The position numbers and the translations under genes are program-made. From the NCBI RefSeq assembly GCF_004010195.1, contig NW_025214356.1:5323-38924 (forward strand): a stretch of 33,602 nt of DNA, read 5' to 3'. Position 1 is the stretch's first letter; each line of letters starts with the position of its first letter. Below, piece by piece: positions 3,646 through 27,788 of this stretch. The DNA is from Chiloscyllium plagiosum. Its lineage: Eukaryota. Below the pieces are notes generated by a model, which was not told the origin of the DNA, did not search any database, and saw nothing but the letters and a program-made list of their open reading frames with translations.

Positions 3646-3649
3646 TCAG

Positions 3650-3740
3650 TTCTGACAAGGGTAATTCGACCTGAAAAGTTGGCAATGCCTTCTCTCCACA
3701 GTTGCTGCCTGATCCATTGAGCGTGGCCAGCAGATTCTGT
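3650..3740 (+). mobile_element. Decayed Penelope-like tail relic with broken hammerhead-like motif
   Basis: CTGACAA-GGGT-AATTCG-ACCT-GAAA followed by TCTCTCCACAGTTGCTGCCTGATCC..CCAGCA resembles the HHR+GATGCTGCCTGACCTGCTG tail seen at 17736-17811. Confidence 0.5.
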
Positions 3741-4414: not shown

Positions 4415-4720
4415 TTTGCTTGAATGTTCATCCAGAAACCCAGATGATGTTCTGGGAACCTGGGTTTGAATCCCGCCCTGACAGATAGTGGAATTTGAAA
4501 TCAAATATTAAAAGGAATATGGAATTTTGACGCTGATGATAAGAATGAGTCGGAAAACACAAGTGGTTCACCAATGTCCTTTAGGGAAGGAAAGTGTTAT
4601 CCATCCGTAGTCTATATCTGGCACCAGATCCATAGAAATGATGTTGACATCTAAGTGGTGTTTAGGTGGGCAATAAATGCTGCCTAACCAGAGACGCTGT
4701 CATCTGTAAATAAAATAAAA
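4415..4720 (+). mobile_element. Decayed tRNA-derived SINE (family uncertain)
   Basis: B-box-like GGGTTTGAATCCC at ~4462, central TGGTTCACCAATGTCCTTTAGGGAAGGAAA block, GGGCAATAAATGCTG tail and A-rich end. Confidence 0.7.
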
Positions 4721-5729
4721 TCATCAGCTACGTTTCAAATACAATTTGTGTCTCTTTGTCATTAACTCTCGAGTGTGGTGTGCAGCTGTTTTTTTTCTTC
4801 ACTGTCTCCATGCCCCTCATGACCTCATACACCTCAAACAGGCCTTCTCAGTAGCTTCTCTGCTGCAATCAAAAGAAGCTGGCCATATCCAGTGTCTCTT
4901 CACACCTAAGTTGCTCAATAGTACACAGGAAATCACATTAAATGAACTGATTCTTCTTATTCAAACATAATGCTTCACTGCATTAACTTCTGAGGAAAAT
5001 ACATGCAAAGCGCTGTACAAGTAGAGAGAATAAAAAAAGAAAGAAATGCTCATTGATATCAGCAGTGTGGCAAGTAGGACTTGCCCCTGTGCTCTCACCG
5101 ACCTACATAAGGCCAGAACAATGCAAATTGCTATCTCCCCGTTCTAACCAGAATTTATTGGGAGTTACAACAGTACAGATGGCTCAAATTGTGTTCAACT
5201 TACTTTGTGTGGTGCTGTAGGTTTAGCCTAATGTTGACAGAACCAACTCAAATTCATACAGTGAGTATCAATGTGAAGGTTCAGAGGGACTGTGGCGTCC
5301 TCCAGTAGTTTGCCAACAGGGAGTGAGATGTATCAGAGGCTTTGGCAGGCTTAGAAGTATAGCCGAGAAGTGCACACAATACTTTGGCTGTGTTCTGAGC
5401 AACGTTTTGTACAGTTCCTGCAGTAGCTTTCTCAGCGACATAACGAGTATTTCAGATCGTTTGTTAAGAGCTGAAGGACAGTGTGAGACCAGGACAGCGC
5501 TTGAGAAGCTGAGGAAGAGGTCTGAAAAACTTTGTTGTTTCTATTAGACCCCTGGTTTTGGTACAGCATGTGAATGGTTGAGGGATGGACCACACTTCTG
5601 ACCACAACTATGTACTCTCAGCCGACTTGCCAATCTTGCAAACTGGAAGGTTATCAAATCTGAACCCAGGTAGGAGCGGCAGTTTATAAAGTGTAGATTG
5701 AGCCACACTCATTGCACTTTAAAAGTGTA

Positions 5730-6050
5730 AGAGGCGACATTATTGAAATATCCAAGATTTTTAAGGAGCGTGGAAAGGTAGATGCAGAAAGGCAGTTTCC
5801 CCAGTGGTAAAGCCTGGAACCGGGGGCATCATCGCAGAATTCTGGGTCACCCATTGAGTTGGAATTTCTTGTCTCAGAGATAGTGAATCTTCTGAATTCT
5901 TTACCGCAGAGAAATGTGGAGGTTGGTTCGGTCAGTATATTTAAGGCTGTGATAAAGTAAGTTTAATCACGATGGGGAATCGAGAATTATGGGGAAAAGG
6001 CAGGAAATTTGAGTCAGGATGATGCGAACAGTCACGATCTTTTGGATTGC
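5730..6050 (+). mobile_element. CR1 LINE 3' end fragment
   Basis: RGDIIEISKIFK-like ORF2 C-terminus, then a TTCTTGTCTCAGAGATAGTGAATCTTCTGAATTCTTTACC block typical of CR1 3' ends. Confidence 0.7.
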
Positions 6051-6084
6051 CAATGCAGTCTCGATGAGCATTCAATGGTGTGAA

Positions 6085-6240
6085 ATCCTCTTTGGGGTTG
6101 TGAGACCAAACGACACACAATACTCCAAGTACGTTCTCGCCAACGCCCTGTATAACTTCAGTGAGTCATTCCGATTTCTGAACTGCATTCCCTTTGCAAT
6201 GAATGCCGCCATATCATTTGCCTTCCACATGGCTTGCAGT
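6085..6240 (-). mobile_element. Short CR1 ORF2 fragment
   Basis: Minus-strand reading LKLYRALARTYLEYCV resembles the CR1 motif LYKALVRPHLEYCVQFW. Confidence 0.6.
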
Positions 6241-6929
6241 AACGCAGGAAGTCAGTAAATATTTGATTCCAAGCACCTTGAGAAAGAGGGTCAGACAGGA
6301 TCATGACTGGTTCCGTTTCAGAGGACATTTCGAACAAAATGACATGCGCACAACAAAAATGTTTAATAATTGTATCATGGAGCAGGCCAGGCACCCCATC
6401 AAAATATTTCAAGGAAATAGAGGAGACCCTTTCTTGGCTAATTGTTTGAAGCAGGTGCAGAGAGGATATTCGAGCTGGTCCCACCACTTAGTTTGAAACC
6501 AAACAGAATTAATTTGCAAGAATATCGAATGAACTATAAAGAATAGCTACAGAGTATAGATTAATTTAACCGATCTGAAAACTGAACAAATCATCCCAAT
6601 TTAATCATGTTGCAAATTACTGCAACAATCTCCATAAACAAGGCCTTGGCACAAAATATGAAATCAAACACAGGTCCACGGCGGAGAGAGAGCAGAGAGA
6701 TTCAGCATCGAACACGTTCTTCCATGGAGCTGTTTCTTTGACAAGAGCCTCAAAACTGACTGACTACATGCTCTGAACAGCCAGATTGCTCGAAATCAAA
6801 CCTAACCAATGACAAGATAACCGTGTTAAAGGAGCAATATCGTCGGACTTGGGAGACAGCTGGTGGTAATTTATCTTCACAGTCACCATATCCGAGACGA
6901 AGGGAGCGCTTGAGAAACTCGGATCAGCG

Positions 6930-7830
6930 CGGTATTAATGACTTGGAGCAAGGAAGTGAACATCCACTCGCCAAAATTGCAGACGACTTTACGATCGGTG
7001 GAATGGCAACTTGTGAGCAAGATCGAAACAGCTTATTGAAATATATTAATTGTTCAAGTCAGTGGGCACAAAATTGACTAATATTGTATAACATTGAAAG
7101 ACCTGAAGATATTTATTTTGGGAGGGGGGAAAAAACAGATTTTTTTTTACATGAAGGAAACTGCAACACAATGGGACTTGTGAGGAAATGTTACCAATAC
7201 AGAAAAAGCTGGCACAGAGATGCAAAAGGCATCCAGAAAGGCTAATGGAATGTTCATTCTTATTTCAAGATTTTCAAGTATCACATCAGGGAAGTCTGAC
7301 TGCAAATGATCAAGATGCTGGGGAGGCAACGTCTGGAATAGTATGCAAAGTTTTTGCTCCCTTATGGAAGGAAAGATGTAATTTCATTGGAGACAGATCA
7401 CAGAAGGATGCTTGCAGGTTTGAAGAGAATATCTCATATGGAAAACCAAAGTCTGTTGCGAGCTATGGACTGAAGTTTACGATAATGAGAGGTGCTCTCA
7501 CGAGAAATATGCATGATTCTGAAGCGTGCTTAACAGGGAAAATGCTGATTTGAGGTTTACCAAGACCAGCGTGCCAGAGTCAATAAGCACCAATTTAGAG
7601 AGAGATGAGAGGGAATGTTGTTTCTCAGGATATTTGAAACTCCGTGTCACAGAGAGCAATGATAACCAAAATCCTTGTTTATATTTAAGACTGAGATAGG
7701 TAGAATCTTGATCCATCGGGGAATCACGGTTTACAGAGAAAGTCAAGATAGTGGATGAGAGGAATTTTGAGACAGAGTCGGTCCTGTTGAATAGCAGAGG
7801 AGGTTTGAGATGCAGAACCACCTATTCCTC
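6930..7830 (+). mobile_element. Decayed CR1 LINE 3' portion (RT catalytic region to 3' end)
   Basis: INDLEQGSEHPLAKIADDFTIGG (cf. INDL...KFADDTK), followed by LEYYAKF- and RGALTR-like remnants. Many stops. Confidence 0.7.
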
Positions 7831-8684
7831 ATCGTGTCTGACATTACTTTAATATTTTTCTCGTTCACTCCTTCCTAAATGATATTTTCACCGTTCAGAC
7901 AGTGAGAACTTTAATCTTTCAAGTCATACAATCCTTTACGAAAACATGACTAGAATGGGTTTGTGGGGAGGGGTGGGGGGGTTTGCAGGGCGGGGCTGGG
8001 GCTAGTTCGCTCGGGTCAAGGTGGGAATTCGGAAAGCAAACAGAAACCTGTTCACCACTCTCTAATTAAGACGGAGACGCAATGAAACCACTATATTGTA
8101 ATCAGACAGATTATTCAGTCATATTTGATCACTGAACACTTTTTAGTTGCTGGATTGTCTATGTCAAAACAATGTTTACTCTGTTGGATGGCTGATATTT
8201 GGGTACTGAGAAGTATGTATCATGTGTTCTGTCCACAGTCAAACAGCATCTGAAGTGATAAATACATAAGATGATTAACAATTGGACACTCGAAAATATG
8301 GACATTGTACAATGTCTACAGTAATACAGTATGTACAGTGTTGAAGAACTGAAATTTGGACATTCAGCAGCATGCATCATATGTATTATCTGCAATGATT
8401 GAATGTCTACAGCATGGGAGACTGTTAATTAAACATTCAGCTTTGTGTAGCCTGTATATGGAAAACAGGACAGCAGAATGAGATGCTGGATGTTTTACAA
8501 TCTTTACCGTGAGACAATGAAGCTTTTGTTGAGCTCTGGGAGACGGAAACTAACTTTTTGGCCGTTAAGCCTGTGTTAGAAGAACTCAATAATAGGCAGT
8601 CTGTTGAGGTGGTGACGTGAAAGTGTCCCTATCTTTAGTCCAGAGATCTGGGTTCTTTGAGCCATGGACTCCTACAGCACGGAG

Positions 8685-8889
8685 GAGAAAGTGAGGACTG
8701 CAGATGCTGGAGATCAGAGATGAAAAATGTGTTGCTGGAAAAGCGCTGCAGGTCAGGCTGCATCCAAGAAGCAGGAGAATCGATGTTTCAGACATAAGGC
8801 CTTCTTCAAGAATGAGCAGGGTGTGCCAAGCAGGCTAAGATAAATGGTAGGGAGGAGGGATTTGGGGGAGGGGCGTTGGGAATGCGATA
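8685..8889 (-). mobile_element. Partial Penelope-derived hammerhead monomer (end of tandem unit 1; ribozyme core mutated)
   Basis: Copy of 9645-9849. The minus-strand core reads TTGAAGA...GAAACATC instead of CTGAAGA...GAAACGTC. Confidence 0.8.
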
Positions 8890-9644
8890 TACGAAAACAT
8901 GACTAGAATGGGTTTGTGGGGAGGGGTGGGGGGGTTTGCAGGGCGGGGCTGGGGCTAGTTCGCTCGGGTCAAGGTGGGAATTCGGAAAGCAAACAGAAAC
9001 CTGTTCACCACTCTCTAATTAAGACGGAGACGCAATGAAACCACTATATTGTAATCAGACAGATTATTCAGTCATATTTGATCACTGAACACTTTTTAGT
9101 TGCTGGATTGTCTATGTCAAAACAATGTTTACTCTGTTGGATGGCTGATATTTGGGTACTGAGAAGTATGTATCATGTGTTCTGTCCACAGTCAAACAGC
9201 ATCTGAAGTGATAAATACATACAGTTCCAGATGATTAACAATTGGACACTCGAAAATATGGACATTGTACAATGTCGACAGTAATACAGTATGGACAGTA
9301 TTGAAGAACTGAAATTTGGACATTCAGCAGCATGCATCATATGTATTATCTGCAATGATTCAATGTCTACAGCATGGGAGACTGATAATTAAACATTCAG
9401 CTTTGTGTAGTCTGTATATGGAAAACAGGACAGCAGAATGAGATGCCGGATGTTTTACAATCTTTACCGTGAGACAATGAAGCTTTTGTTGCGCTCTGGG
9501 AGACGGAAACTAACTTTTTGGCCGTTAAGTCTGTGTTAGAAGAACTCAGTAATAGGCAGTCTGTTGAGGTGGTGACGTGTAAGTGTCCCTATCTTTAGCC
9601 CAGAGATCTGGGTTCTTTGAGCCATGGACTCCTACAGCACGGAG

Positions 9645-10173
9645 GAGAAAGTGAGGACTGCAGATGCTGGAGATCAGAGATGAAAAATGTGTTGCTGGAA
9701 AAGCGCTGCAGGTTAGGCTGCATCCAAGAAGCAGGAGAATCGACGTTTCGGACATAAGGCCTTCTTCAGGAATGAGTAGGGTGTGCCAAGCAGGCTAAGA
9801 TAAATGGTAGGGAGGAGGGATTTGGGGGAGGGGCTTTGGGAATGCGATAGGTGGAAGGAGGTTAAGGTGAGGGTGATAGGGCGGAGAGGGGGCGGAGGCG
9901 GAGACGTCGGGAAGAAGATTGCAGGTACCTGGGGGATGCAGTGAGAGAGGGACTCACTGAAATCCTTGTAGAGGGAGGAAGAGAGCTTCTTCAAGGAAGG
10001 CATCCTTGCAAGAGGATTCGCAGTAGTTTAAAATCAACTCGGAGAAAGTTAGAAACGTCGATTCTCCTGCTCCTTGGATGCTGCCTGACCTGCTGCGCTT
10101 TTCGAACAACACATTTTTCAGCTCTGATCTCCAGTATCTGCAGTTCTCACTTTCTCCTAGTTGATTTTAACCT
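9645..10173. mobile_element. Left-arm remnant of the Penelope-derived hammerhead cassette (full monomer on -, partial on +)
   Basis: Reverse complement of 17337-17860, truncated at 10173 by the left-arm deletion. Confidence 0.85.
9738..9774 (-). ncRNA. Minimal type I hammerhead ribozyme motif (core intact, one stem II mismatch)
   Basis: Minus strand reads CATTC-CTGAAGA-A-GGCC-TTAT-GTCC-GAAA-C-GTC-GATT. Confidence 0.6.
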
Positions 10174-11409: not shown

Positions 11410-11925
11410 AGGGTTCATGGAGATGCGCACAATCTCGACAGGGCCAGGATACAGAGAATGAAGGTGGCAAAACATTTCACCTTCCTCGATGATGTGCTCA
11501 TTCCGGGTCTCCTCCACCGCCTAAACAAGGCCACCCACAAACTGAAGGAAGCACATGTCATTTTTCATCTCGGTGATCTAGAAGCACATGGCCTCAACAT
11601 TGACTTCACCAGTTTCCAAATCTTCCTGCCCATCTCACATCCAACCCCTCTGACTTGGCACTATCCTATTGTTCTGCACAACATTTACATATTCCTTACC
11701 ACCTATCCGTTCCAACATCCCCAGGGACCTAACACAATCACCTTCTATCTATGTGCACCTATCGTAATCCAACCTACTTTTATACCGGCCCCAAACCTGG
11801 TATTCATTATTCAGTCCGTCCCTCTATTCCCCTGAACTGTTGAAGACCCCTGCCCGAAACGTCAACCCTCCTGGTCCTTGGGTGTTGCCTGACCTTCTAT
11901 GCGTTCCCAACGCCACATTTTATGG
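11410..11925 (+). mobile_element. Decayed Penelope-like element 3' end (GIY-YIG C-terminus, pyrimidine-rich UTR, degenerate hammerhead)
   Basis: ORF 11458 reads VAKHF..DDVLIPGLLH..ATHKLKEAHVIFHLGDLEAHGLNIDFTSF, matching the vertebrate PLE GIY-YIG end (VAxHF...IFRLGTLxPxGLN). CTGTTGA..GCCC-GAAACGTC lies at ~11837-11863, followed by a GTTGCCTGACC tail. Confidence 0.8.
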
Positions 11926-13007
11926 TCCCTGCATCATCACCAAGAAATTGAAAATTAAGAACTGGTCAGTTCTCATCCTTTGCTGATTTTCGGCTGCAGT
12001 ATAATCTACTTGGAAAATTAAATGAACTCATTTGATACGTCAGGGTCTCCTGTAGTTAATAACTGTGAAAAACAAAAGACGGACAGAATCTGTGATGCCC
12101 ATGCGAGGCATTTCATTCATGACTCAAACAGTAACATGCACAAGCATACACTCAAATCCAGGACCGACCACATGCACTGACATACACACACACAATGTCA
12201 ACGATGCTTAGGAACACATGAATATTCGCACAGACACCACCGACAAACACACCCAGATGTTCATACAAACAGAGGTACATCTTCAGTCATGCATTGTAGA
12301 TCGTGTTGGATAAGTGATGTTTGAGCCTATTCCTTATGATCTTTACCTCAGCTGATGCCCGAGCTGAATCTTCATTGTTGACATCATTCGGATAGTAAAA
12401 TTGGCAAACCAGGGACCCAACCTCAACATTTACATAATAGCAATGACACGAAGATGGAAAGTTGAAGCATTTTTCCCAGATGCTCATAGATAGAAAAGGA
12501 CAAGAGGAGCCATGGAAAGCAACTGCGAAACAGAAGTAGAGCAACTTTATAAAATACGGTGGATAGCGGGAGCGGGAGATAATCCCAAGGTGTCTTCGAA
12601 TGTTAGATAGACATGTATTAACAAATTAGTGAGGCCAATTATTTAATCGGGGAGATAAGACTTGCAATTTTCACACAGTATACGCCCAAGGTTGGCAGTG
12701 AAGTGTTGGATGGTCTGATCGAGAGGTTTTTATATTGGTGCCAGAGTACTGGAGGGAAATCTCGAGGTCTGCTTCCAGGCAGTGTTTGAGGTTGGGTGAG
12801 ATTCAGTCACTGGTAGAGATGCACCAATAGGAACTGAGAAAAGGCTGATTTGAGAAATGTGGAAAACGCTTTCAGGTTTGGTTAACTGGAACATGGTATG
12901 GCAACGAGAGCTGGAAGCTCACTCACTCATACAATATACCCCTGGAAAGCGATATGTAATCAGAAAGGAAAGTCACAGCAGATCTTTGCGCTGAACTGGG
13001 AAACCAA

Positions 13008-15070
13008 TCTGAAGCCCATCTAACCAACATTATTCTATTGTCATCCATTGTTTATCCAATGACTGTTAAACGCCCCAAACGTTGGAGTGTGGACCACTGT
13101 TGGAGGGAAGGCGTTCCAGGCCCTTACTATTCTCTGACTAAAACACCTACTTTTCACATCTGTCCTCCGTCAATCTTCCCTCAATTTCCAAACTATGTCC
13201 CCTCGTGCTAGCCATCCCCAATCGAGGAAAAGCACTCTCACTATCCAACTTATCCATCCTCTCACCATCTTATATGTCTCAATTACATCACCTTGCAACA
13301 TTCTCTCTAACGAAAGCAGCCTCAAAGACATCAGCCTTTCATCTTAAGACCTCCTGGCAACAAACTGGTAAATGTCTTCTGCGCCCTTTCCAAATTTTCC
13401 ACATCATTCCTCTCATGCAGTGACCAAAACTGTATGCAGTGCTCCAAGTGCAACTGCACCAATGATTCGTAAAGCAACATGACCTGATGGCATCGAAACT
13501 CAATCGCTCTACCAATAAAAGCGAACACACCATACAATATCATGGTATCCCTATCAAATTGTGTGGCATCTATCAGGGATATATGGGCATGCACACTGAA
13601 ATCTCTCTGCCCATCCACACTGCTAAGTATATTACCATGCACACTTTTCCGCCTTAAGCTCCATTTGCAATCTGTCAGCCGAGCTCTGCAGCTTATCTGT
13701 GTCGGTCTGGAATCTGCAACATCCTATCGGCACTGACCACAACTCCAATGACTTTAGTGTCATCCGAAAATTCATTAACCCATCTTTCTACGCTCTCATT
13801 CAGTTCCTTCAAAACAACTGAAAAACAGCACTGTCCCAAAACAGATCCTTGCGGTATACCGGTAGAAAATGAACATTTCCCATCAATGTCTTCTATCAGC
13901 CAGCCAATCTCTGATCCAAAGCGGTAAACCACCCTCAATCCTATGCCTCCATATTTTGTGCAACAGCGTACACCGGACACCTCATCAAACGCTTTATTGA
14001 AATTGTATACGCTGCATTAAAAACGTTACCCGCATCCCCTAATTTGTTCACCTTCTGAAACAACTCAATACCGTTTGTGAGGCACGATGTACCCTTTACA
14101 AAATCGTGCTGACAAGCAAGCCCTAATCAAATTGTTCCTGGCCAGATGATTAGAAATTCTATCTCTCGTAATCCTTTCCAACATTCCTCTCACAATTGAA
14201 GTAAGGTAATTTCCAGGGTTAACTCTACTTCCCTTCTTAAACAAGGGGCCAACATTTGCTCTCCTCCTGTCTTCTTGCATTATTCCTGTAGACGATGACG
14301 ATAGAAAGGTTAAAGCCAAATGTCCAGCTATCTCCTCCCTGACCCTCCAGAGAATACTTGAATGAATCCCATCCGGCCCAAGTGTCTTACTTATTTTCAC
14401 ATCTTACAAAATTGCTATCATCTCTTCCTTATTAACCTCAATCCCGCCTTGTCTAATATCCTTTATGTCAGTATTCTCCTTCGCAACATTACCCTTTTCC
14501 AGTGTGAGTAAGGACGAGAAATATTCATTTAATGCTTCTCACATTTCCTCGAACTCCCCACACAACGTCCCAGGACTATCCTTGACTGCCCCTAATCTAA
14601 ACCTTGTCATTCGTTTATCCCTGACGTAGCGATACAAAGACTTACGGGTTTTCATGAACTGACCTGCCAAAGATTCTCATGTCCCCTCATGTTTCTCCGT
14701 AGGTCTCTCATTAGGCCTTTCAGGCTAACTTGCAATTTTGAAGCGCCCTAACTGGGCCTTCACGTGTCATATATACTTAAGCCTCCTCTTCCTCTTGATA
14801 ACGTATTCAACTTCTTTAGTAAACTACGCCCCCCCCTCGCTCGACTCCTTCCTCCCTGTCTGACAGGCACTTACTTAACAACGCTCAGTACCTGTTCCTT
14901 TATCAAGCTCCACTTTTCAATGAAGTCCATACGGTTCACTTTATTTCACTAAATCTTGCCTAATTGCATCATAATTGCCTTATCCCCAGCTATGTCCCAT
15001 ACCCTGCGGTATATACCACTCCCTTTCCATCGCTTAAGGGAAAACAACCAAATTGTGGTCACTGTCACCG
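13008..15070 (-). mobile_element. Decayed CR1 LINE ORF2 (endonuclease end through RT to 3' end, internally deleted)
   Basis: Minus-strand motifs GDSDHNLVVF, GPDGIH..EEIAG..ANVGPLFKKGSRVNPGNY, GIPQGSVLG, FSDDTKVIGVV, LHLEHCIQFWS..LERAQKTFT. Confidence 0.9.
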
Positions 15071-15391
15071 ATTTGCTTACCTACATTCAAATCTCACACC
15101 TGGCCTGTTTCATTGTCCGATGACAGGCCTTGCCTGGCCTTTTCTATCTACATTAGAACCCTTCAACATGCTAGAGAAGACGTTGCAGGGGGACTGTCTG
15201 ATACTTTTTTATTGTCATTAGCCATGGGTGACGTCCCGGAAGACTGCAGGATAGCGAATTGTGCGCCCTTATTCAAGAAGGGCAGTAAGTAAAAGCCTGG
15301 GAAAGAAAGACGAGTAAGGCGAATATCCGTGATAGGTAGGTTACGTGAGAAGATTCTGAGATAAAATAAACATACATTTGGACATATATTC

Positions 15392-15811
15392 AAAGTTTGT
15401 GAGAAGATGTGTAGCTCGGGTGCTCGTTGTTGTGGTTCTGTTCGTCGAGCTGGGAATTTGTGTTGCAGACGTTTCGTCCCCTGTCTAGGTGACATCCTCT
15501 GTGCTTGGGAGCCTCCTGTGAAGCGCTTCTGTTATCTTTCCCTCGGCATTTGTTGTGGTTTGAATCTGCCACTTCCGTTTGTCAGTTCCAGCTGTCCGTT
15601 GCAATGGTCGGTATATTGGGTCCAGATCAATGTGCTTTTTGATTGAATCTGTGGATGAGTGCCATGCCTCTAGGAATTCCACGGCTGTTCTCTGTTTGGC
15701 TTGTCCTATAATAGTAGTGCTTTCCCAGTCGAATTCATGTTGATTGTCATCTGTGTGTGTGGATACTAAGGATAGTTGGTCGTGTCGTTTCGTGGCTAGT
15801 TGGTGTTCATG
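15392..15811 (-). mobile_element. 5'-truncated Penelope-like element (second family): GIY-YIG C-terminus plus hammerhead tail
   Basis: HEHQLATKRHDQLSLVSTHTDDNQHEFDWESTTIIGQAKQRTAVEFLEAWHSSTDSIKKHIDLDPIY in ORF 15485..16006; hammerhead-like motif at 15465-15504. Confidence 0.85.
15465..15504 (-). ncRNA. Minimal type I hammerhead motif with one core mutation (CAGAGGA for CUGAnGA)
   Basis: GCA-CAGAGGA-T-GTCACC-TAGACA-GGGGAC-GAAA-C-GTC-TGC: stem I GCA/TGC, stem II GTCACC/GGGGAC, palindromic ACGT stem III. Confidence 0.55.
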
Positions 15812-17047
15812 AACAGGAAGTTTTTTGATTAGTGTCCATATGGTAGGCTGCTCTGGAAAGTCAGTTCGTACGGAATCCAGAGGTGCTCGCAAATTGGGTA
15901 CACAACTGGCTTGATGGTAGAAAGCAGAGTGTAATAGTAGACGGATGTTTGCCTGACTGGAGGGCTGTGACTCGTAGAGTGCCTCATGGATCGGTACAGG
16001 GCACACTATTTTTTGTGATCTGTATCACTGATTTGGATGAGACTGGATATGGCGGGAGGAGTAAATTTTCAGTTGACACTAAAAGAGGCAGAACCATGGA
16101 GAGTGAAGAAAGTGACCGAAATTGCAGCAGCCCTTGATCTGCAGGGGAAGTGGACTGACAATTGGCAAATGGAGTTTGCTCCAGATAAACATGTGGTCTT
16201 GCATTTCGTGGAAAGTCACGTCAAGGTAGGATTTCATTATAAAGCGTAGGACCTTCAGGGGTGTCGTGAAACAGATGGACTTTGGAATTCAGGTCCATGA
16301 TTCTCTGAAAGTGAAGTCACAGATAGACACGGCAGTGAAGAAGGCTTACAGCACACTGGCCTTCATCGGCCAGGACATTGAGTATAGAAGTTGAGAAGTC
16401 ATGTGTCATTTGTACAGGACGTTGATGAGGCTGCACCTGAAGTATCCTGTTCAGTTTTGCTCACATTGCTATAGGAAGGATGTTACTAAACTGGAAAGAG
16501 TGCTAAATAAATTCACAAGGATGCTGCCAGGTCCCAATGATCTGATTTATAGGGAGAGATTGGGCAATTTAGGATATTTATGTTCAGAAGGCAACTGATG
16601 GGGTGTCGGACAGGATTTTGTAGAAGTGTATAAGACCTTGAGAGGAATGTATAGGGTGAATGTGCTCAGTCTTTTTCGCTCGGATGGGCAATTGCGGACG
16701 AGAAGGCATCAGTTTATGTTTAGAGCGGAAACAATAAAAGGGAAACTAAGGGGTAACGTGTTACACAGAGGATGGTATGGATATGGAGTGGAATGGATAG
16801 AACGAGCTGACAGCAGACGTGGTTGGAGCAGGTGCATTAACAATATTTAAAATGCATTTGAACCAATACATGGATAGGAAATGTTTCGGATGATATGGGC
16901 CAAGTCCAGGGAAATGGAGTTTATGATCATTAACATTTTGATTGTCGTGGACCAATTCAGGCAAAGGGCCTGTCTCCGTGCTGTAGGAGCTGAAAAATGT
17001 GTTGCTGGAAAAGCGCAGCAGGTCAGGCTGCATCCAAGGAGCAGGAG

Positions 17048-17084
17048 AATCGACATTTAGGGCATAAGCCCTTCTTCAGGAATG
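17048..17084 (-). ncRNA. Degenerate hammerhead motif (perfect stem II, GAAA mutated to TAAA)
   Basis: Minus strand reads CATTC-CTGAAGA-A-GGGC-TTAT-GCCC-TAAA-T-GTC-GATT. Confidence 0.45.
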
Positions 17085-17730
17085 AGGTGAGTATGCCAAA
17101 GCGGCTAAGATAAAAGATAGGGAAGAGGGACTTGGGGGAGGGGCATTGGGAATGCGATAGGTGGAAGGAGGTAAAGGTGAGAGTGATAGGCCGGAGAGGG
17201 ATGGGGGCGGAGGGGTCGGGAAGAAGATTTCTGGTAACTGGGGGGGCGTGCAGTGAGAGAGAGACTCATTGAAAGCCTTGTAGAGGGAGGACGAGAGCTT
17301 CTTCAAGGAAGGAATCCTTGCAAGAGGATACGCAATAGGTTAAAATCAACTGGGAGAAAGTGAGAACTGCAGATACTGGAGATCAGAGCTGAAAAATGTG
17401 TTGTTCGAAAAGCGCAGCAGGTCAGGCAGCATCCAAGGAGCAGGAGAATCGACGTTTCTAACTTTCTCCGAGGTAAACCTACTGCGAATCCTCTTGCAAG
17501 GATGCCTTCCTTGAAGAAGCTCTCTTCCTCTCTCTACAAGGATTTCAGTGAGTCCCTCTCTCACTGCACCCCCCAGGTACCTGCAATCTTCTTCCCGACC
17601 TCTCCACCTCCGCCCCTTCTCCGCCCTATCACCCTCACCTTGACCTCCTTCCACCTATCGCATTCTCAACACCCCTTCCCCAAATCCCTCCTCCCTACCA
17701 TTTATCTTAGCCTGCTTGGCACACCCTACT

Positions 17731-17767
17731 CATTCCTGAAGAAGGGCTTATGTCCGAAACGTCGATT
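17731..17767 (+). ncRNA. Minimal type I hammerhead ribozyme motif, catalytic core intact
   Basis: CATTC-CTGAAGA(17736-42)-A-GGGC-TTAT-GTCC-GAAA(17756-59)-C-GTC(17761-63)-GATT. Stem II is 4 bp with one G.U, stem III is palindromic ACGT, and stem I is weak. Confidence 0.7.
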
Positions 17768-18729
17768 GTCCTGCTTCTTGGATGCAGCCTGACCTGCAGC
17801 GCTTTTCCAGCAATACATTTTTCGTCTCTGATCTCCAGCATCTGCAGTCCTCACTTTCTCCTCCGTGCTGTGGGAGTCCATGGCTCAATGAACCCAGATG
17901 TCTGGACTAAAGATAGGGACACTTACACGTCACCACCTCAAAAGACTGCCTATTATTGAGTTCTTCTAACACAGACTTAACGGCCACAAAGTTCGTTTCA
18001 GTCTCCCAGAGCTCAACAAAAGTTTCATTGTCTCACGGTAAAGATTGTAAAACATCCGGCATCTCATTCTGCCGTCCTGTTTTCCATATACAGGCTACAC
18101 AAAGCTGAATGTTTAATTATGAGTCTCCCACGCTGTAGACATTGAATCATTGCAGATAATACATATGATGCATGCTGCTGAATGTCCAAATCTCAGTTCT
18201 TCAACACTGTATATACTGTATTACTGTAGACATTGTGCAATGTCCATATTTTCGAGTGTCCAATTGTTAATCATCTGGAACTGTATGTATTTATCACTTC
18301 AGATGCTGTTCGACTGTGGACAGAACACATGATACATACTTCTCAGTATCCAAATATCAGCCATCCAACAAAGTAAACATTGTTTTGACATAGACAATCC
18401 AGCAACTAAAAAGTGTTCAGTGATCAAATATGACTGAATAATCTGTCTGATTACAATATAGTGATTTCATTGCGTCTCCGTCTTAATTAGAGAGTGGTGA
18501 ACAGGTTTCTGTTTGCTTTCCGAATTCCCACCTTGACCCGAGCGAACTATCCCCAGCCCCGCCCTGCAATCCCCCCACCACCACCACCCCACCCCACAAC
18601 CCCATTCTAGTCATGTTTTCGTAAAGGATTGTATGACTTGAAAGATTAAAGTTCTCACTGTCTGAACGGTGAAAATATCATTTAGGAAGGAGTGAACGAG
18701 AAAAATATTAAAGTAATGTCAGACACGAT

Positions 18730-19631
18730 GAGGAGTAGGTGGTTCTGCCTCTCAAACCTGCTCTGCTATTCAACAGGACCGTCTCTGTCCCAAAATTCCT
18801 CTCATCCACTATCTTGACTTTCTCTGTAACCCGTGATTCCCCGTTGGATCAATATTCTACCTATCTCAGTCTTAAATATAAACAAGGATTCTGGTTATCA
18901 TTACTCTCTGTGACACGGAGTTTCAAATATCATGAGAGACGACATTCCCTCTCATCTCTCTCTAAATTGGTGCTTATTGACTCTGACAGGCTGGTCTTGG
19001 TAAACCTCCTATCAGCATTTTCCCTGTTAAGCACGCTTCAGAATCATGCATATTTCTCGTGAGAGCATCTCTCATTCTCGTAAACTTCAGTCCATAGTTC
19101 GCAACAGACTTTGGTTTTCCATATGAGATATTCTCTTCAAACCTGGAAGCATCCTTCCGTGATCTGTCTCCAATGAAATTACATCTTTCCTTCCATAAGG
19201 GAGCAAACACTTTGCATAATTTTCCAGACGTTGCCTCCCCAGCATCTTGATCAGGTGCAGTCAGACTTCCCTGATGTGATACTTGAAAATCTTGAAATAA
19301 GAATGAACATTCCATTAGCCTTTCTGGATGCCTTTTGCCCCTCTGTGCCAGCGTTTTCTGCTTTGGGAACATTTCCTCACAAGTCCCATGATGTTGCAGT
19401 TTCCATCATGTAAAAAAAAAACGGTTCTTTTTTCCCCCTCCCAAAATAAATATCTTCAGGTCTTTCAATGTTATACAATATTAGTCAATTTTCTGCCCAC
19501 TGACTTGAACAATTAATATATTTCAATAAGCTGTTTCGATCATGCTCACAAGTTGCCATTCCACCGATCGTAAAGTCGTCTACAATTTTGGCGAGTGGAT
19601 GTTCACTTCCTTGCTCCAAGTCATTAATACC
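18730..19631 (-). mobile_element. Decayed CR1 3' portion (mirror of 6930-7830)
   Basis: INDLEQGSEHPLAKIVDDFTIGG in ORF 19485..19739. Confidence 0.7.
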
Positions 19632-20509
19632 GCGCTGATCCGAGTTTCTCAAGCTCTCCCCTCGTCTAGGATATGGTAACTGTGAAGATAAATTACCACC
19701 AGCTGTCTCCCAAGTCCGACGATATTGCTCCTTTAACACGGTTATCTTGTCATTGGTTAGGTTTGATTTCGAGCAGTCTGGCTGTTCAGAGCATGTCGCC
19801 AGTCAGTTTTGTGGCTCTTGTCAAAGAAACAGCTCCATGGAAGAACGTGTTCGATGCTGAATCTCTCTGCTCTCTCTCCGCCGTGGACCTATGTTTGATT
19901 TCATATTTTGTGCCAAGGCCGTGTTTATGAAGATTGTTGCAGTAATTTGCAACATCATTAAATTGGGATGATTTGTTCAGTTTTCAGATCGGTGAAATTA
20001 ATCTATATTCTGTAGCTATTCTTTATAGTTCATTCGATAATCTTGCAAATTAATTCTGTTTGGTTTCAAACTAAGTGGTGGGGCCAGCTCGAATATCCTC
20101 TCTGCATCTGCTTCAAACAATTAGCCAAGAAAGGGTCTCCTCTATTTCCTTGAAATATTTTGATGGGGTGCCTGGCCTGCTCCATGATATAATTATTAAA
20201 CATTTTTGTTGTGCGCATGTTATTTTGTTCGAAATGTCCTCTGAAACGGAACCAGTCATGATCCTGTCTGACCTTCTTTCTCAAGTTGCTTGGAATCAAA
20301 AATTTAGTGACTTCCTGCGTTGCTGCAAGCCATGTGGAAGGCAAATGATATGGCGGCATTCATTGCAAATGCAATGCAGTTCAGAAATCGGAATGACTCA
20401 CTGAAGTTATACAGGGCGATGGCGAGAACGTACTTGGAGTATTGTGTGTCGTTTGGTCTCACAACCCCAAAGACGATTTCACGCCATTGAATGCTCATCG
20501 AGACTGCAC

Positions 20510-20823
20510 TCCAAAAGATCGTGACTGTTCGCATCATCCTTACTCACATTTCCTGCCTTTTCCTCATAACTCTCGATTCCCCATCCTGACGAAACTTTGT
20601 CACAGCCTTAAATATACTGACCGAACCAACCTCCACATTTCTCTGCGGTAAAGAATTCCGAAGATTCAACTAGCTCTGAGACAAGAAATTCAAACTCAAT
20701 GGGTGACCCAGAATTCTGCGATGATGCCCCCGGTTCTAGGCTTTACCACTGGGGAAACTGCCTTTCTGCATCTACCTTTACACGCTCCTTAAAATCTTGG
20801 ATATTTCAATAATGTCGCCTCTT
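20510..20823 (-). mobile_element. CR1 3' end fragment (mirror of 5730-6050)
   Basis: Reverse complement of the left-arm fragment. Confidence 0.65.
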
Positions 20824-22449
20824 ACACTTTTAAAGTGCAATGAGTGTGGCCCAATCTACACTTTATAAACTCCCGCTCCAACCTGGGTTCAGCCTTGATA
20901 ACCTTCCAGTTTGCAATATTGGCAAGTCGGCTGAGAGTACATAGTTGTGGTCAGAAGTGTGGTCCATCCCTCAGGCATTCAAATGCTGTTCCAAAACCAG
21001 GGGTCTAATAGAAACAACACAGTTTTGCAGACCTCTTCCTCAGCTTCTCAGAGCACTGTCCCAGTCTCACACTGTCCTTCAGCTCTTAACTAACGATCTG
21101 AAATACTCGTTACGTCGCTGAGAAAGCTACTGCAGGAACTGTACAAAACGATGCACAGAACACAGCCAACGTATTGTGTGCACTTCTAGGCTATATTTCT
21201 AAGCCTACCAAAGCCTCTGATACATCTCACCCTCTGTTGGCAAACTACTGGAGGACGCCACAGTCCCTCTCAACCTTCACATTGATACTCACTGTGTGAA
21301 TTTGAGTTGGTTCTGTCAACATTAGGCGAAACCTACAGCACCATACAGAGTAAGTTGAACACAATTTGAGCTACCTGTACTGTTGTGGCTCCCAATAAAT
21401 TCTGGTTAAAACGGGGAGATATCAATTTGCATTGTTCTGGCCTTATGTAGGTCATTGAGAGCACAGGGGAAAGTTCCTACTTGCCACACTGCAGATATCA
21501 ATGAGCATTTCTTTCTCTTTTCATTCTCTCTACTCGTACAACGCTTTGCATGTATTTTCCTCAGAAGTTAATGCAGTGAAGCATTATGTTTGAATAATGT
21601 TCCTAGGTACTTGCCTGTACTTCTAATTATGTTGTGTACATTTCTGACATCGAAGAAGAAAAGGCGACATGCAATGCTGCAAAGCATCAGCATTTCCGAC
21701 CGGGGAGATGCCTCATCTCAGCAATTCAGCTTCTATTCTATGGTGTCAATCCAATAAACTGAGAACCATCGTTTATTTTCAGTGATGTGATTAAAAACTG
21801 TGTGACACTGGCAAGCGACGAGTTTCCGTGTCTCATTTCCCATTCAGATTAGTCACTTAACAGAGTGTCTGGGAAGAAGGAGGAGATCAGAAAATGGGTA
21901 AGGCGCATTGATGGCATTTTCACTGGAGGAGTTTAATTTAGTGCAGGGGGGGGCTTTGCTGAGGCCGCAGCTGGAGAACCATGTGTAATTATGGCCTCTG
22001 TACTGTAGGAAGGATTTGGATGCCTTGAAGAACGTGCAAAAAAAGGTTTACCGTTTAGTGATTGGAAACAGGTGGATTGTATTGACGATGTGACCTTTAT
22101 TCGGGTTGATAACTTGGGGAAGTCAAAGATTCCTGAATGAAAGATGTAGAGAGGGCATCCAAAGTCTCCACAGTTGAGAGACCTCCTCCGAGATGTCTGG
22201 CCACAGTCAGTATACTGTGCCAATGCAAGTAAAGAGGGAATTGAGGTACAAGCCCCTATGCAGTTATTTTGACCAGAATGTTGCCTGTTTTACAGTATAC
22301 CACTTGTCAGGAGAGGTTTTCCCTTGATTGTTGAAGGCTGGGTGCAGTCTGGCTAAAAATACCTCGAATTATGTGAACCGTGAATAGGTTACCCAGCTGG
22401 AGAGCTCGCCCAGGCTTGTTATGTCAAATACTGGTGGGTATTATTTATG

Positions 22450-22640
22450 TTGTGAGGGCAAATCTGGAAAGGAAATGCGTGAGGAAAGGGTTTTGCACGC
22501 AGAGTGGTAGGCGTCTGGATCACATTACCAGAGGCGATACTGGAAACAAATATGATGGCAATATTTTGACATACATATGACCAAGCAGAGAACAACGAGA
22601 TGTAGTCCATGTGCAGGCAGATGCAATTAATTTGGCCCAC
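22450..22640 (+). mobile_element. Old CR1-like 3' end fragment within the right-arm-only segment
   Basis: GTGAGGAAAGGGTTTTGCACGCAGAGTGGTAGGCGTCTGGATCACATTACCAGAG resembles the CR1 terminal RxxFFTQRVVxxWNxLP block. Confidence 0.5.
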
Positions 22641-22888
22641 ACATGCAGGAAGAAGAATAAATTCATTTAATGTGATTTCCCGTGTACTATTGAGCAACTT
22701 AGGTGTGAAGAGACACTGGATATGGCCAGCTTCTTTTGATTGCAGCAGAGAAGCTACTGAGAAGGCCTGTTTGAGGTGTATGAGGTCATGAGGGGCATGG
22801 AGACAGTGAAGAAAAAAAAACAGCTGCACACCACACTCGAGAGTTAATGACAAAGAGACACAATTTGTATTTGAAACGTAGCTGATGA

Positions 22889-23195
22889 TTTTATGTTATT
22901 TACAGATGACAGCGTCTCTGGTTAGGCAGCATTTATTGCCCATCTAAACACCACTTAGATGTCAACATCATTTCTATGGATCTGGTGCCAGATATAGACT
23001 ACGGATGGATAACACTTTCCTTCCCTAAAGGACATTGGTGAACCACTTGTGTTTTCCGAATCATTCTTATCATCAGCGTAAAAATTCCATATTCCTTTTA
23101 ATATTTGATTTCAAATTCCACTATCTGCCAGGGCGGGATTCAAACCCAGGTTCCCAGAACATCATCTGGGTTTCTGGATGAACATTCAAGCAAAG
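22889..23195 (-). mobile_element. Decayed tRNA-derived SINE (mirror of 4415-4720)
   Basis: Reverse complement of the left-arm SINE. Confidence 0.7.
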
Positions 23196-23964
23196 GATTT
23201 TCAACTGTTTGTCTGGAAGGGCAGGTGAGGAACGACATCTCACAATCTTTAAAACGCCATTGGATGATTCACTTTCAAGTCTACAGCCACGTTTTGGTAT
23301 GTGGGACTGGTGAATATTTAGAATAGTATTTCTTGGTATAGGACTCGATGGGCTGAAAAGCCTCCCCTCGACTTCCTGATTATGTTATTCTGTGCTCGAA
23401 CATACACAAACCACAGCCAACAACCAACTTCACGCCTTTATTTTATACCTTTAACTTGGGGGTGGAAAGGGCATGTTTCTCCACTCAGCGGTCGGTTTTG
23501 ACAATTGTCTGAGAATATCCACTGCCTCACATCTGAGTTCAAAGATTCGAAATGAAATTGGTTTCTGCACTGGGATAGAGTAGGAAACAAAATTCTATCT
23601 GCTTGCGTACCAAACACCAAACGACCATCAATCACACAAATTCCTGTCCGCATTGTTCAAACATTAAGGGAAATATCTAGCAGGTTTGTGTGTTTCGAGG
23701 AGGTGAATGCACCATTTCGTGGTAAAACGCACAGAATGAAATGTTCTGTTAAAAACAGGAGAGGCTGCGAGGCATGGTCCCTGAAATAATCCGGGCACAC
23801 AACACATTGCCAATATTTGGTCACTCAGACTCTAAGGCCACGTTCCCCAAACTCAATAAATCATCATCACAGAAACTGCTGGCCCCGCTCAATGGATCAG
23901 GCAGCAACTGTGGAGAGAAGGCATTGCCAACTTTTCAGGTCGAATTACCCTTGTCAGAACTGAC

Positions 23965-24308
23965 CGAAGTGGTTCTGTGGTCACATGCACAGTCAGAACA
24001 AGTCAAACCAAAAATTTGCGAAGTGAATCTGGAGTCACACCTAGGGACAGAGCATGTGAGTGGTACCCTCAGTGCTATGGTTCTGGAATCTCGTGCAAGA
24101 TAGACCTGGTTGAGGTGAAACATAGTGTTACGAGCAGGGAGTCACATGTATACATAGAGCAGGTCGGTGGTAAGCACAGTGCTTTTGGTCAGGATTTGCA
24201 TACAGACCCCACAGTAGGTTAATGATAGCCAAACTGGTGTGGACTGGGGTCACACGTATAGACGGAGGGAGTCAATGGCAACCACGGTGCTGTGCGTTTG
24301 GAGTTCCA
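23965..24308 (-). repeat. Degenerate 54-bp minisatellite (mirror of 3300-3645)
   Basis: GTCACA/GAGTCACA motifs at ~54-bp spacing. Confidence 0.7.
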
Positions 24309-24329
24309 TGTAGAGTCAATGTACTTCAT

Positions 24330-24996
24330 TATACCCTGTCCAAACTTCGGAAAGTCAGATCACACCGCTGTATTCCTCCTCCCAGCTCACAAGCAGAAGC
24401 TGAAACCTTTTTCTTTGAAGTAGGACCCTTCACAAAAAGTGATACGATGCTGGTCAGAAGCAGTAGAGAACCATCTCCTGGAGTTCTTGGAATCGGTGGA
24501 CTGGATTGTATTCAAGCAATTATTGGAAAACCTGGATCAGTACGTAGCACCATCTTGGATTCATGAGCAAATGTGTGGAGGACTGTGCAGCAAAAATGTA
24601 AATCAGGTTGTTCTCCAACTGGAAACCTTCGACGAACCAGGAAATCCACTTCCTACTGAAGATCAGCATTCAGGTCGGAAGACATGGAACGACGTATATG
24701 TCTTCTTCAAAGCCATCAGGGTTGCTATCATTCGGTGCCAGATCACATTAGAGGACCACAACAACCAACCACACTACCACCGCCTGTGTTAAGGCCTAAA
24801 CTGCATTACAGGGTAGGATATGAAACACAGCAAGATAACAGACAAGGGCACGTACCTCTTGGACGTGCATAATGATTTCTAAGCTCAGTTTGAGAAGAAT
24901 GCTAGGTGTTTTGTGGAGCCGGGCCAACAGCTCCGGGCACATTTGTACTCTCCATCACCATTTCAGATGTTAGATCGTTCTTCCTGAGAGGCAAAC
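24330..24996 (+). mobile_element. Rex1/Babar LINE fragment (mirror copy; resumes briefly at 25526-25610 after a foreign insert)
   Basis: ORF 24439 reads IRCWSEAVENHLLEFLESVDWIVFKQLLENLDQY..KAIRVAI..; upstream FGKSDHTAVFLLP. Confidence 0.85.
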
Positions 24997-25304
24997 TCGA
25001 AATGGCGGTGACTCTCGGTTCATTACGATCGTGCTCCAGCGAATGGTCGTGAATTCACGTGATCAGGTCATTGGATTTTCAGAAATTCCGATTCAGGCAA
25101 GTGTGAAAACGCTCACGGAGATGTCCTCTGGAATTTGAAGCGGCGTACCCTTCCACTCAGGCTATTGTTTCGGCCTGCTGTGTCTGATTCAAACAGAAAC
25201 TTCCCGTGACTGTCGCCAGTGGGCAATCGTTGTGGGCAAGACTTCCAGATCAAGATTTACTTCCAATGTCGCTGTTTTCATTGTTTAAACGAAATCATTT
25301 CACT

Positions 25305-25376
25305 TGCCTGTTCAGGGAATTGAATCTGAGATTACCACCTTACAGATCGGGTTGCTAACCACTATAAGAACGAGAA
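25305..25376 (-). pseudogene. Decayed tRNA-Asp(GTC)-like sequence
   Basis: Minus strand TTCTCGTTCTTATAGTGGTTAGCAACCCGATCTGTAAGGTGGTAATCTCAGATTCAATTCCCTGA aligns without gaps to vertebrate tRNA-Asp (TCCTCGTTAGTATAGTGGT.AGTATCCCCGCCTGTCACGCGGGAGACCGGGGTTCGATTCCCCGA, recalled) at about two-thirds identity. Stems are broken and the anticodon position reads GTA. Confidence 0.65.
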
Positions 25377-25612
25377 ACATTCTTTTCAATCCTGGCGTTT
25401 AGGTCACATATCGAATCGCCTACTTGGAAATGAAGGTGTGGTCAGTCCCTTCAGGAATGTGACATGACCTGTAGGACTGAGGGGCTGCGGATACACTTCA
25501 GTTCTCTCGGAATGAGTCTGGAAGGCTACGTCTCAGTTCCAAACACTCCAACTGGATGCCCAATTTTCTGACTCACAGTCTGCAATTAGTGAAAATGATA
25601 GTACACTATTGA

Positions 25613-27356
25613 TGCGCGTGGGTGTGGGTGTGTGCATGGGTGTGGGGGCATGTGGGTGTGTGAGGATGTGTGCGTTGGTGTGAGATGTGTGCATGTACAT
25701 GCGTGAGTGTGTGGGTGTGTGAGGTGCTCGTGGTTGTGGGTGTGTGAAGGTATTTGTGTCGTTGTGTTTGTGCATGTGCATGCGTGAGTGTGTGGGTGTG
25801 CGTGTGCGGGTGTCGGCATGTGAAGGTGTATGGGTGTGGGTGTGGGTGTTTGTATCGGTGTGTGTGTGGGTGTATGTGCCTATGTGTCTGTGCCTGTGCA
25901 TGCATGTTGATGTGGATGTTAGTGTGGTGTGTGCGTTTGTATGCGTGTGCTTATGGCTGTGTGTGTTGCTGTATGGGAGAGACTGCCTGTGTGTGCGTTG
26001 GTGTGGGTTTGTGCGCATAAGTGTGAGTGTGTGCATAAGTGTGTGGGTGTGTGGGTAGGTGTGTTTATGCATATGCGAGAGTGTGTGCCGGTGTGTGTGT
26101 TCTGGTGTGTCTATGCTTACGTGTGGGCGTTTGTATGTGGGAGTGCATTGCATGTGGTTTTGAGTGTGTACGTGCCTGTCTGTGGCTGTGGGTGGCTGCA
26201 TGCGTGGATGTGCGGGTGGGTGAGTATGTGTGTATATGTTTTGCGAGTGTGCATGTGGGTGTGTAGTTGTGAACGATTGCGGGTGTTGATGGTTGTGATT
26301 GTTTTGTATGGTTGTTTATGCGTGGATGTGTGGGTGTATGTGTACACATCCTGTTGCATTTGGTTGTATGAGGATGTGCATGTGGCTGTCTGTGTTCGTG
26401 TGTTTGTCTGTGTGGGGGTTGGCGTCGGTGTGCGTCTATGCGTGGATATGTGTGTTTGCACACGTGTATGCATGGTGCGAGTGCGTTTGTGTAGGGAAGT
26501 GCATGTCGGATGTGTGCACGTGTGTGTATATGTGTGAGTAGGTGAATATGTGCATGTGTGCGTGGCTGGATAGGTGGTTTAGTGTGCGTGTGTGTGAGGA
26601 TCTGTGCATGTGCACATCTGTTTGTGTGGTGAGGATCTGTGCATGTGCACATCTGTTTGTGTGGGTATTTGTGCATTTGCGCGTGAGTGTGCATGTCTGT
26701 GTCCTCTGGTGTGTGTTGGGGTGTGTGCTTTTGGTCTGTGCGTGCGTGCATGGTTGGGTGGGTGAATGGGTGAGTGCATGTGCATGTGTGTTTGTGGAGG
26801 TGGGTGTGTGGTTGTGGGTGTGTGGTTGTGGGTGTCTGTATTTGTGAGTGCATCTGTGAGTTTGTGCATATTTGAGTGAATGGATCTGGGTGTGTGGTTG
26901 TGTATGTATCAGTGTGTGTACTTATGTGTGCATGTGTGTGCGTCTGTGTTTGGTATGCACGCATGTCGATGTATGTGAGTGTAGGTGTGGATGTGTGGGT
27001 ATGCATGTGCATGCGTGTATATGTGTGTGTGTGTGCGTGGATGTGGGTGTGTCTGCGTGTATGTGCATGTGTGTTTATATGTGGAAGTGCTTGCGTGTGA
27101 GTGGGTGGGTATAGGTGCATTTGTGGATATACCTTATGGATGTGCTGTGTGTGGGTGTGTGTATTGGAGTGTGTGTAAGTTGGTGTGTATGCGTGGATGT
27201 GTGTGTGCATGCATGTGTGGGGCTGGGTTGTGCGGGTGTCTGTTTGGGAGTGTGTGGGGGAGGTTCTGTGTGTGTGTCTGTGTTGTGTGTGTGTCAGTGT
27301 CTCGGTGTGTTTCTGTGTGTGCGTGGTTGTGTGCATATCCGTACATACATGTGTGA
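25613..27356. repeat. Long degenerate (TG)n low-complexity tract (mirror of 355-2097)
   Basis: Reverse complement of the left tract with slippage indels. Confidence 0.95.
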
Positions 27357-27788
27357 TGAATAATGACAGCAGGCTCTCCGAGTCCATAAAAAAACAACAG
27401 TATTGTGCCAGCCTGCCGAGTGCAGCTGGGAGCAGCGAGCCCGATGATGTAGATATCTCTGATACTGATTCGTGTTGCCTTGGTGCTGTGGCAGCCCATT
27501 ACTACTGACAGGAAATTGTGAAGAAGGGATTTTTGGCAGATCAGTACAAATCGCAGAGATCACTCTGGGTGTGGAGACAGGGAAGTCGCAGATTAGGCCA
27601 TTCAGCCCGGTCAGTCTGTCCTGCCATTTATTTGCATAAAGGCTGCTTTGGATTTGTTAATGGAGCTTCTCGTGTCGAGACTGTCAATGTCTAAATCCCA
27701 TCGCAATCAAACCCTTCTGAGCTTTCCTTTCCTGGGTCACTTTGTATTCGGTAATTGTAAGCGGGATTTAAAGAGAGGGAGGGAATAG

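Follow-up and report, generated by a model that had tools for sequence, protein, structure and literature searches.

The locus at 16974-17876 of the window (the whole stretch of 33,602 nucleotides from Chiloscyllium plagiosum analyzed here) raises the question of whether a ~399-nt unit bearing a hammerhead is a retrozyme spread through a circular RNA, or a derivative of a Penelope-like element (PLE). A sequence-only reading had described it as about 1.2 head-to-tail units on the minus strand plus an inverted full copy, devoid of RT and endonuclease. The feature is real and was correctly located. Unit A and a partial unit P lie on the minus strand and unit B on the plus strand (Table 1), the minus-strand GTC triplets at 17052 and 17451 are indeed 399 nt apart, and Pfam returns no family for the ORF 17364-17792, in line with the lack of RT and endonuclease. 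The 1.2 copies can be read as the pair of pseudo-LTRs belonging to a single element with an internal deletion, and the insertion as one old, internally deleted, non-autonomous PLE copy with the standard head-to-head architecture.

Table 1. Coordinates of the insertion, its target and its paralogues within the window.
Feature	Position	Strand	Remarks
Target, presumed decayed CR1-type LINE 3′ part	15815..16973	+	end broken by the insertion; broken RT/C-terminal frames
Left target-site duplication (TSD)	16974..16989		3 final nt common to the end of unit A
Unit A	16987..17352	-	leader, ORF start decayed and without its ATG, deletion joint, 3′ UTR, hammerhead whose core has two mutations; ends at the short 3′ site, without tail
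Partial unit P	17353..17458	-	5′ pseudo-LTR remnant (probable); begins within the hammerhead at 8 nt upstream of the cut site; continues through the tail
2-nt filler, head-to-head inversion junction	17459..17460		junction also present in the paralogous arm, at about 10050-10053
Unit B	17461..17862	+	inverted second copy; begins with the 9 final nt of the upstream tail, ends at the long 3′ site
Parent PLE-type ORF, first 26 codons	17502..17578	+	26/26 identical to residues 1-26 of P0001 / XP_060689572
Joint of the internal deletion, with the ORF start fused to the 3′ UTR	17578..17579	+	also in unit A, about 17236
3′ UTR / pseudo-LTR body, pyrimidine-rich	17579..17735	+	C or T at 121/156 bases over 17580-17735
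Minimal type I hammerhead core	17736..17763	+	only intact core of the insertion
PLE "tail", 34 nt	17829..17862	+	arm B only; missing from arm A
Right target-site duplication	17861..17876		1 mismatch; 2 first nt common to the end of B
Paralogue of right TSD, B, junction and P	9629..10173	-	inverted segmental duplicate; without A and left TSD
Third partial copy, B and right TSD	8669..8889	-	product of local tandem duplication in the left arm

The ~16-bp direct repeat reported to flank the whole cassette stands. The two 16-mers are 15/16 identical when compared within the window, with an outward extension that is not clean, and the paralogous 16-mers at 9629-9644 and 8669-8684 (reverse-complemented) each match the first repeat at 16/16 positions. 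An identity of at least 15/16 is expected by chance at ~2e-8 per placement, or 8e-6 with 400 placements allowed. The perfect match at 9629-9644, already pointed out from the letters, is therefore correct, but it does not represent an independent insertion, since it belongs to an inverted segmental duplicate of 10 kb. At position 17872 of the right TSD, both letters occur in the public run X2, in which the tail-TSD-flank joint likewise occurs. Upstream of the insertion, the DNA exhibits broken CR1-like RT/C-terminal frames, for which Pfam reports only RVT_1 at E 0.038, below the cut-off; from the ends of shark CR1 elements, we take the target site to be a CR1 3′ tail. A fragment at 15400-15815 (-), between CR1-like pieces, shows similarity to a third PLE-like family at its endonuclease end; its motif is presumably of endonuclease type, Pfam returning nothing above the cut-off.

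Self-comparison of the window reveals an inverted duplication (1-10173 versus 17337-27712, 92-97% identity), with the insertion on the inner margin of the right arm. The left arm has no equivalent of 14696-17336, while 10174-10346 matches 14523-14695 in inverted orientation. Within it, 7937-8889 and 8890-9849 form a tandem duplication, and its end lies at a 500-N gap; it is either a segmental duplicate or a mis-scaffolded haplotype. The two paralogous B copies are 95% identical and the flanks 96%, as compared with 87-89% between A and B. An assembly artefact was rejected as the origin of the element: both arms, 4-5% diverged, contain the same inversion junction, and the tail-TSD-flank joint is present in X2. 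Of note, P is identical in both arms (10053-10158 versus 17353-17458, 105/105) while B and the flanks differ by 4-5%, which has a chance of about 0.008 and may reflect either gene conversion or an assembly effect. Elsewhere in the window, a decayed 33-bp tandem repeat covers 31903-32492, and long degenerate CA/TG-rich tracts occupy 350-2100 and 25530-27330.

The hammerhead of unit B (17736-17763) possesses a bulged A before a 4-bp stem II, a palindromic ACGU and a cut site after 17763; its helix I is very weak, and the hammerhead is not the minimum-energy fold. Judged on the description in PMC4209133, it is a minimal type I hammerhead within a pseudo-LTR. A minimal-core scan of the whole window reports three matches, at 17736 (B), at 9769 (-, the paralogue of B) and at 11837 (an unrelated element), and none in the minus-strand arm of the insertion. 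Only one of the three cores of the insertion is thus intact, that of A carrying two substitutions and P retaining the 3′ half only. The match at 11837 (+) is a variant core in the 3′ end (11450-11930) of a second, diverged PLE-like family, with 72-79% identity to the tail of the present one. An Rfam search (E<=1) returns no hammerhead, no Rfam model fitting this core, and two matches, both to mir-297, below the gathering score and on the CA-rich repeats described above. The metazoan PLE minimal hammerheads described by Cervera and de la Pena (2014, PMC4209133) likewise have this core, a bulge before stem II, no true helix III and a short helix I, and belong mostly to truncated copies; pairs on opposite strands, separated by 100-700 bp, are described as well. 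In contrast, stem II is 4 bp here versus 7-8 bp in the Schistosoma consensus of the same description, and two of the three motifs are broken here.

The origin of the unit becomes apparent from its coding part. The ATG at 17502 opens 26 codons, all identical to the start of P0001 (XP_060689572), a RefSeq "mucin-2-like" protein of Hemiscyllium ocellatum, and the identity ends at the 26th codon, exactly at the joint 17578/17579 that A and B have in common. In run X2, the letters past 17578 continue the parent ORF. Contig pieces in this run end at 17568-17579 or begin at 17579-17587, and none of the 24 listed (142,655 further pieces exist) bridges the joint. Because the ORF identity stops at the joint, the X2 letters continue the parent ORF and the listed pieces stop on either side, the joint is assigned to an internal deletion, so that the check for an internal deletion suggested by the sequence-only reading is positive. 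The 399-nt unit is a leader and 26 codons fused to the 3′ UTR, the minimal hammerhead and the tail; it is thus not simply a pseudo-LTR, and not an RNA in its own right either. Splicing as the source of the joint was also considered and dropped, as no AG precedes its 3′ side in the one parent-type contig shown. With 26 codons only, the present copy is devoid of an ORF with a PLE-type RT and GIY-YIG, and it is therefore a non-autonomous derivative. The deletion leaves a 96-codon open frame (17502-17792 on the plus strand, 9713-10003 on the minus strand) that, in each of the two B copies, crosses the UTR and enters the hammerhead. This frame is low-complexity, stop-poor sequence whose start is lost in A, and a protein search with the 96-residue chimeric ORF of B confirmed neither of its two candidates as a relative.

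Regarding the parent protein, the N-terminus of P0001 is shared by five of 248 candidates, itself included and hence by four others, and a search of 50%-representative proteins finds P0001 alone. One of these proteins, P0005, combines a P0001-type N-terminus (E 5.8e-12) with RT-like motifs, which we take to be PLE RT motifs. Atlas neighbours at a score of 0.89 have RVT_1 in 15% of members, which is a lead only; Pfam and PDB return no match for the parent RT, the PDB matches of P0005 all falling on the ClpX piece of the gene model. Atlas matches for the P0001 N-terminus name no family, and no endonuclease was seen in the parent-type proteins. The assignment to PLEs is thus a probable one, based on the hammerhead, the architecture and these presumed RT motifs. 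The ORF start of the element also appears in shark gene models: P0001 begins with it, the whale-shark "prostatic acid phosphatase-like isoform X1" (P0004) has the ORF-start domain as its C-terminus, and P0005 joins this domain, the RT-like motifs and the ClpX piece. These models represent either mis-prediction or exonisation. The species named among the relatives are carpet sharks.

Four public runs were compared with 17440-18039. In X2, the summed contig depth is 11.0 million over the tail, 6.2 million over the hammerhead, and 0.75 million over the ORF start; it falls to 0.11-0.14 million next to the joint and to 61-141 in the flank, and the X1 profile has the same shape, without the flank; summed depths in these two runs are not copy numbers. 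Tails end at 17860-17863 in unlike flanks in both X1 and X2 (agreement 0.34-0.36). The runs show that the family is very abundant, dispersed and composed mostly of 3′ ends. Among the 15 joints listed (63 more exist), nine connect the ORF start to the UTR, the hammerhead or the tail at differing points, each at a depth of 34-495, and head-to-head joints from 17458-17459 are found in X2 at other loci. Since the ORF-start joints are many and differing and are accompanied by head-to-head joints, deleted and inverted derivatives are common and varied in the family. Many different ORF-start-to-hammerhead joints in X2 fall at 17729-17733, just upstream of the core.

The raw poly(A) reads of run X21 comprise 2,541 matches, informative at the family level only, of which 94% run on into unlike sequence in both directions. 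They leave the family at both 3′ sites, 158 near the short site and 904 at 17860-17862, so that the ends of A and of B are both regular ends of the family. The indexed public runs list no RNA run carrying this sequence, which counts neither for nor against. No pile-up of read starts or ends is observed in X21, a poly(A) single-cell library of which ~2% was read and which would hardly show one. Exact-pattern scans report no family member in viral, metagenome and genome contigs, and the five matches of a pattern scan with the RT-like part of P0005 were not confirmed. No description of the present shark family was found in the literature, a search that lay outside Repbase/Dfam and outside the supplements of the Li, Clavereau and Pollet preprint, where the chondrichthyan is named; PLE-derived retrozymes, including one chondrichthyan, are already in print (bioRxiv 10.64898/2026.07.22.740005).

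The architecture of the insertion can be compared with two known systems. The typical insertion unit of PLEs is described as a partial tandem with an adjacent inverted 5′-truncated copy and a one-sided tail of 30-40 bp (PMC8557442), and from Adineta vaga a PLE copy is reported that has an internal deletion, inverted pLTRs and a TSD of 10 bp (PMC3846280). The present locus exhibits a minimal hammerhead, a partial tandem with an inverted copy, a one-sided tail and a TSD. It therefore resembles the units described for EN+ PLEs (Penelope/Poseidon, Neptune; Arkhipova et al. 2013, PMC3846280; Craig et al. 2021, PMC8557442) in its tandem pseudo-LTRs, inverted 5′-truncated copy, 34-nt one-sided tail, TSD and non-LTR target. 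However, its TSD is 16 bp and not 8-10 bp as given for rotifer EN+ PLEs, its inverted arm is the whole unit since all but 26 codons are deleted, and its ORF starts about 40 nt after the tail and not inside the pseudo-LTR, as described for EN+ PLEs. For PAc, the Anolis carolinensis Poseidon (Frangieh et al. 2024, PMC11167929), the protein is described as nicking and extending both target strands and using uncleaved RNA, with no need for hammerhead cleavage; the tail is set by two neighbouring internal sites at which the RT starts, as seems to be the case here. In PAc, the hammerhead and the RT start are placed inside the ORF start, whereas here they are upstream of it.

Animal retrozymes, in turn, are described as type I hammerhead units of 150-450 nt that are arranged in tandem and give rise to self-paired circles on expression (Cervera and de la Pena 2020, PMC7229834), and Li, Clavereau and Pollet (2026), who trace the class back to PLE pseudo-LTRs, ask for two consecutive units whose motifs are complete (bioRxiv 10.64898/2026.07.22.740005). 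As described in these two sources, animal non-LTR retrozymes share with the present locus a type I unit of ~400 nt, non-autonomy, derivation from PLEs and a TSD of more than 4 bp. The locus differs from them by lacking two consecutive intact hammerheads (the one intact core lies in the plus arm and none in the minus arm, although the source element may have had both) and by retaining the parent ORF start. Its motif is minimal and does not show the ~6-bp helix I and loop contacts of a canonical type I hammerhead, minimal motifs being accepted by Li et al. as well. The monomer is only weakly self-paired (z about -1, for a copy decayed by several percent), and unit B has a GC content of 210/402 (52%) with its 16-bp TSD, where retrozymes have GC below 50% and a TSD above 4 bp. 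Since it has a single intact motif, folds no better than shuffled sequences and has 52% GC, filing the locus as a retrozyme was rejected in spite of its size and long TSD; its source element, with two motifs at a spacing of 399 nt, may have functioned as one. The condition under which the sequence-only reading would have given up its proposal, namely that the unit is simply the standard pseudo-LTR and that neither independent multimers nor a ~400-nt RNA exist, holds in part: the unit is more than a standard pseudo-LTR, and independent multimers or a ~400-nt RNA were not found in the data examined.

The explanation that we favour, with modest confidence, is that a linear transcript of ~1.3 units of an internally deleted PLE was copied in trans into two cDNAs placed head to head. 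A PLE would have lost nearly its whole ORF, yielding a pseudo-LTR, the leader, 26 codons, the joint and the 3′ UTR/pseudo-LTR, with the two hammerheads 399 nt apart. Its linear, uncleaved transcript may then have been mobilised in trans by an intact PLE protein, whose endonuclease would have nicked both strands of the CR1 tail 16 nt apart. One nick would have primed at the short 3′ site for copying nearly the whole RNA (A and P), and the other at the long site, 34 nt further, for copying one unit (B). The two cDNAs would have been joined head to head, and the insertion would have decayed before most of it was copied by the 10-kb inverted segmental duplication. The arm lengths (472 nt for A and P, 402 nt for B) both fit one 1.3-unit transcript, B ends 34 nt beyond the end position of A, and, counted from the cut site, the ends of the arms lie 65 and 99 nt downstream, where the 3′ ends usual in the family are. 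Within the 73 nt common to P, A and B, the single informative site is 17786, where the minority letter stands in A and in each of the three B copies, and the majority letter in P. As A and B share this letter without P, the site suggests that P represents the 5′ pseudo-LTR and A and B the 3′ one. A and B also agree at 10 of 12 family-polymorphic sites versus 7-8 expected, a weak excess. The majority letters were tabulated at 19 sites from 40 rows listed (112 more exist), chosen where B differs, so that this table shows only the changes of B itself. As P runs 8 nt past the cut site, the template was either uncut or re-ligated there. A and B differ by 11-13%, and their derivation from one source is presumed.

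One feature goes against this linear 1.3-unit transcript: B stops 24 nt from the start of A, as if one longer P-A-B RNA had been primed twice. By our estimate, such a geometry has a chance of ~7-8% on a 1.3-unit template. The source may then have been a head-to-tail dimer or a longer array of the deleted unit, an incipient non-LTR retrozyme as Li et al. (2026) understand it, one linear P-A-B read-through RNA being twin-primed, with a first cDNA running from the long site of B until it met the second, from the short site of A; we regard this as possible and clearly less probable. Twin priming is known from L1, and P, A and B read as one RNA leave 24 nt missing at the inversion in just this manner. 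The deletion joint shared by A and B and the letter at 17786 fit as well, and PLE-derived tandem units averaging 363 bp are reported for the one chondrichthyan genome sampled (bioRxiv 10.64898/2026.07.22.740005). However, no head-to-tail A-B joint is present within the window, TRF does not find a 399-nt array, and the fall of the X2 depth toward the joint together with the unlike tail flanks (agreement 0.34-0.35) indicates that the copies are mostly dispersed ends. A dimeric PLE protein could moreover carry two RNAs, which makes a multimer unnecessary, and the multimer with a 24-nt twin-priming deletion is ranked lower since the end of A coincides with the short 3′ site of the family.

The size of the unit, within the 150-450 nt of animal retrozymes (PMC7229834), would also suit a 399-nt monomer released by double hammerhead cleavage, ligated into a circle and copied for more than one round by a PLE RT priming internally. 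Hammerheads at a 399-nt spacing in the source could adopt a dimeric fold, internal priming would work on a circle, and copying past the cut site is also expected of a ligated one. Nevertheless, we consider this origin unlikely. A circle predicts P, A and B to be identical at insertion, whereas P has the family majority letter at 17786, a single site; neither arm exceeds 1.2 units; and self-pairing is weak (z -1.20 for the linear form; for the circle z -0.99, with 41% paired and 10 of 60 shuffles equally good). Minimal PLE hammerheads are described as cleaving poorly even as dimers (PMC4209133), one of nine Xenopus dimers was cleaved and eight were not according to the preprint (bioRxiv 10.64898/2026.07.22.740005), and for the Anolis PLE reads with their end at the cut site were not found (PMC11167929). 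The rolling-circle reverse transcription of a ~399-nt circular RNA put forward by the sequence-only reading is thus not borne out, in view of the one intact core, the standard PLE architecture, the arm ends at the usual 3′ sites of the family, the letter at 17786 and the weak self-pairing. The broader part of that proposal, mobilization by a Penelope RT from a template with more than one pseudo-LTR, agrees with the single TSD-bounded insertion and the deletion joint. Least probable of all is an origin at the DNA level, in which A and P were later copied by inverted duplication or two related copies were inserted at one spot. The position at the inner edge of the 10-kb inverted duplication, with further rearrangements, and the 11-13% difference between A and B would suit it. 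Against it, a single 16-bp TSD bounds both arms, and B carries a tail missing from A and is therefore no DNA copy of A. The inversion junction occurs in both paralogous arms and hence predates the duplication, and head-to-head joints near the hammerhead exist at other X2 loci.

As a side result, a shark protein annotated in RefSeq as "mucin-2-like" begins with the ORF start of this element. It is improbable, in our judgment, that the 399-nt fusion represents an amplified shark retrozyme family whose circular RNA was copied by a PLE RT from two internal starts, the locus being a fossil in which both target strands were primed on one multimeric or circular template. If true, this would provide direct genomic evidence, with a defined parent and joint, for the postulated circle-to-genome step of animal retrozymes, which is still hypothetical. 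With its two RT start sites producing arms that differ by the tail, the locus is a tidy illustration and shows no new mechanism. It likewise exemplifies the way in which the two hammerheads of a PLE reach retrozyme spacing through an internal deletion, and might represent an intermediate between PLEs and retrozymes along the route proposed by Li et al. (2026).
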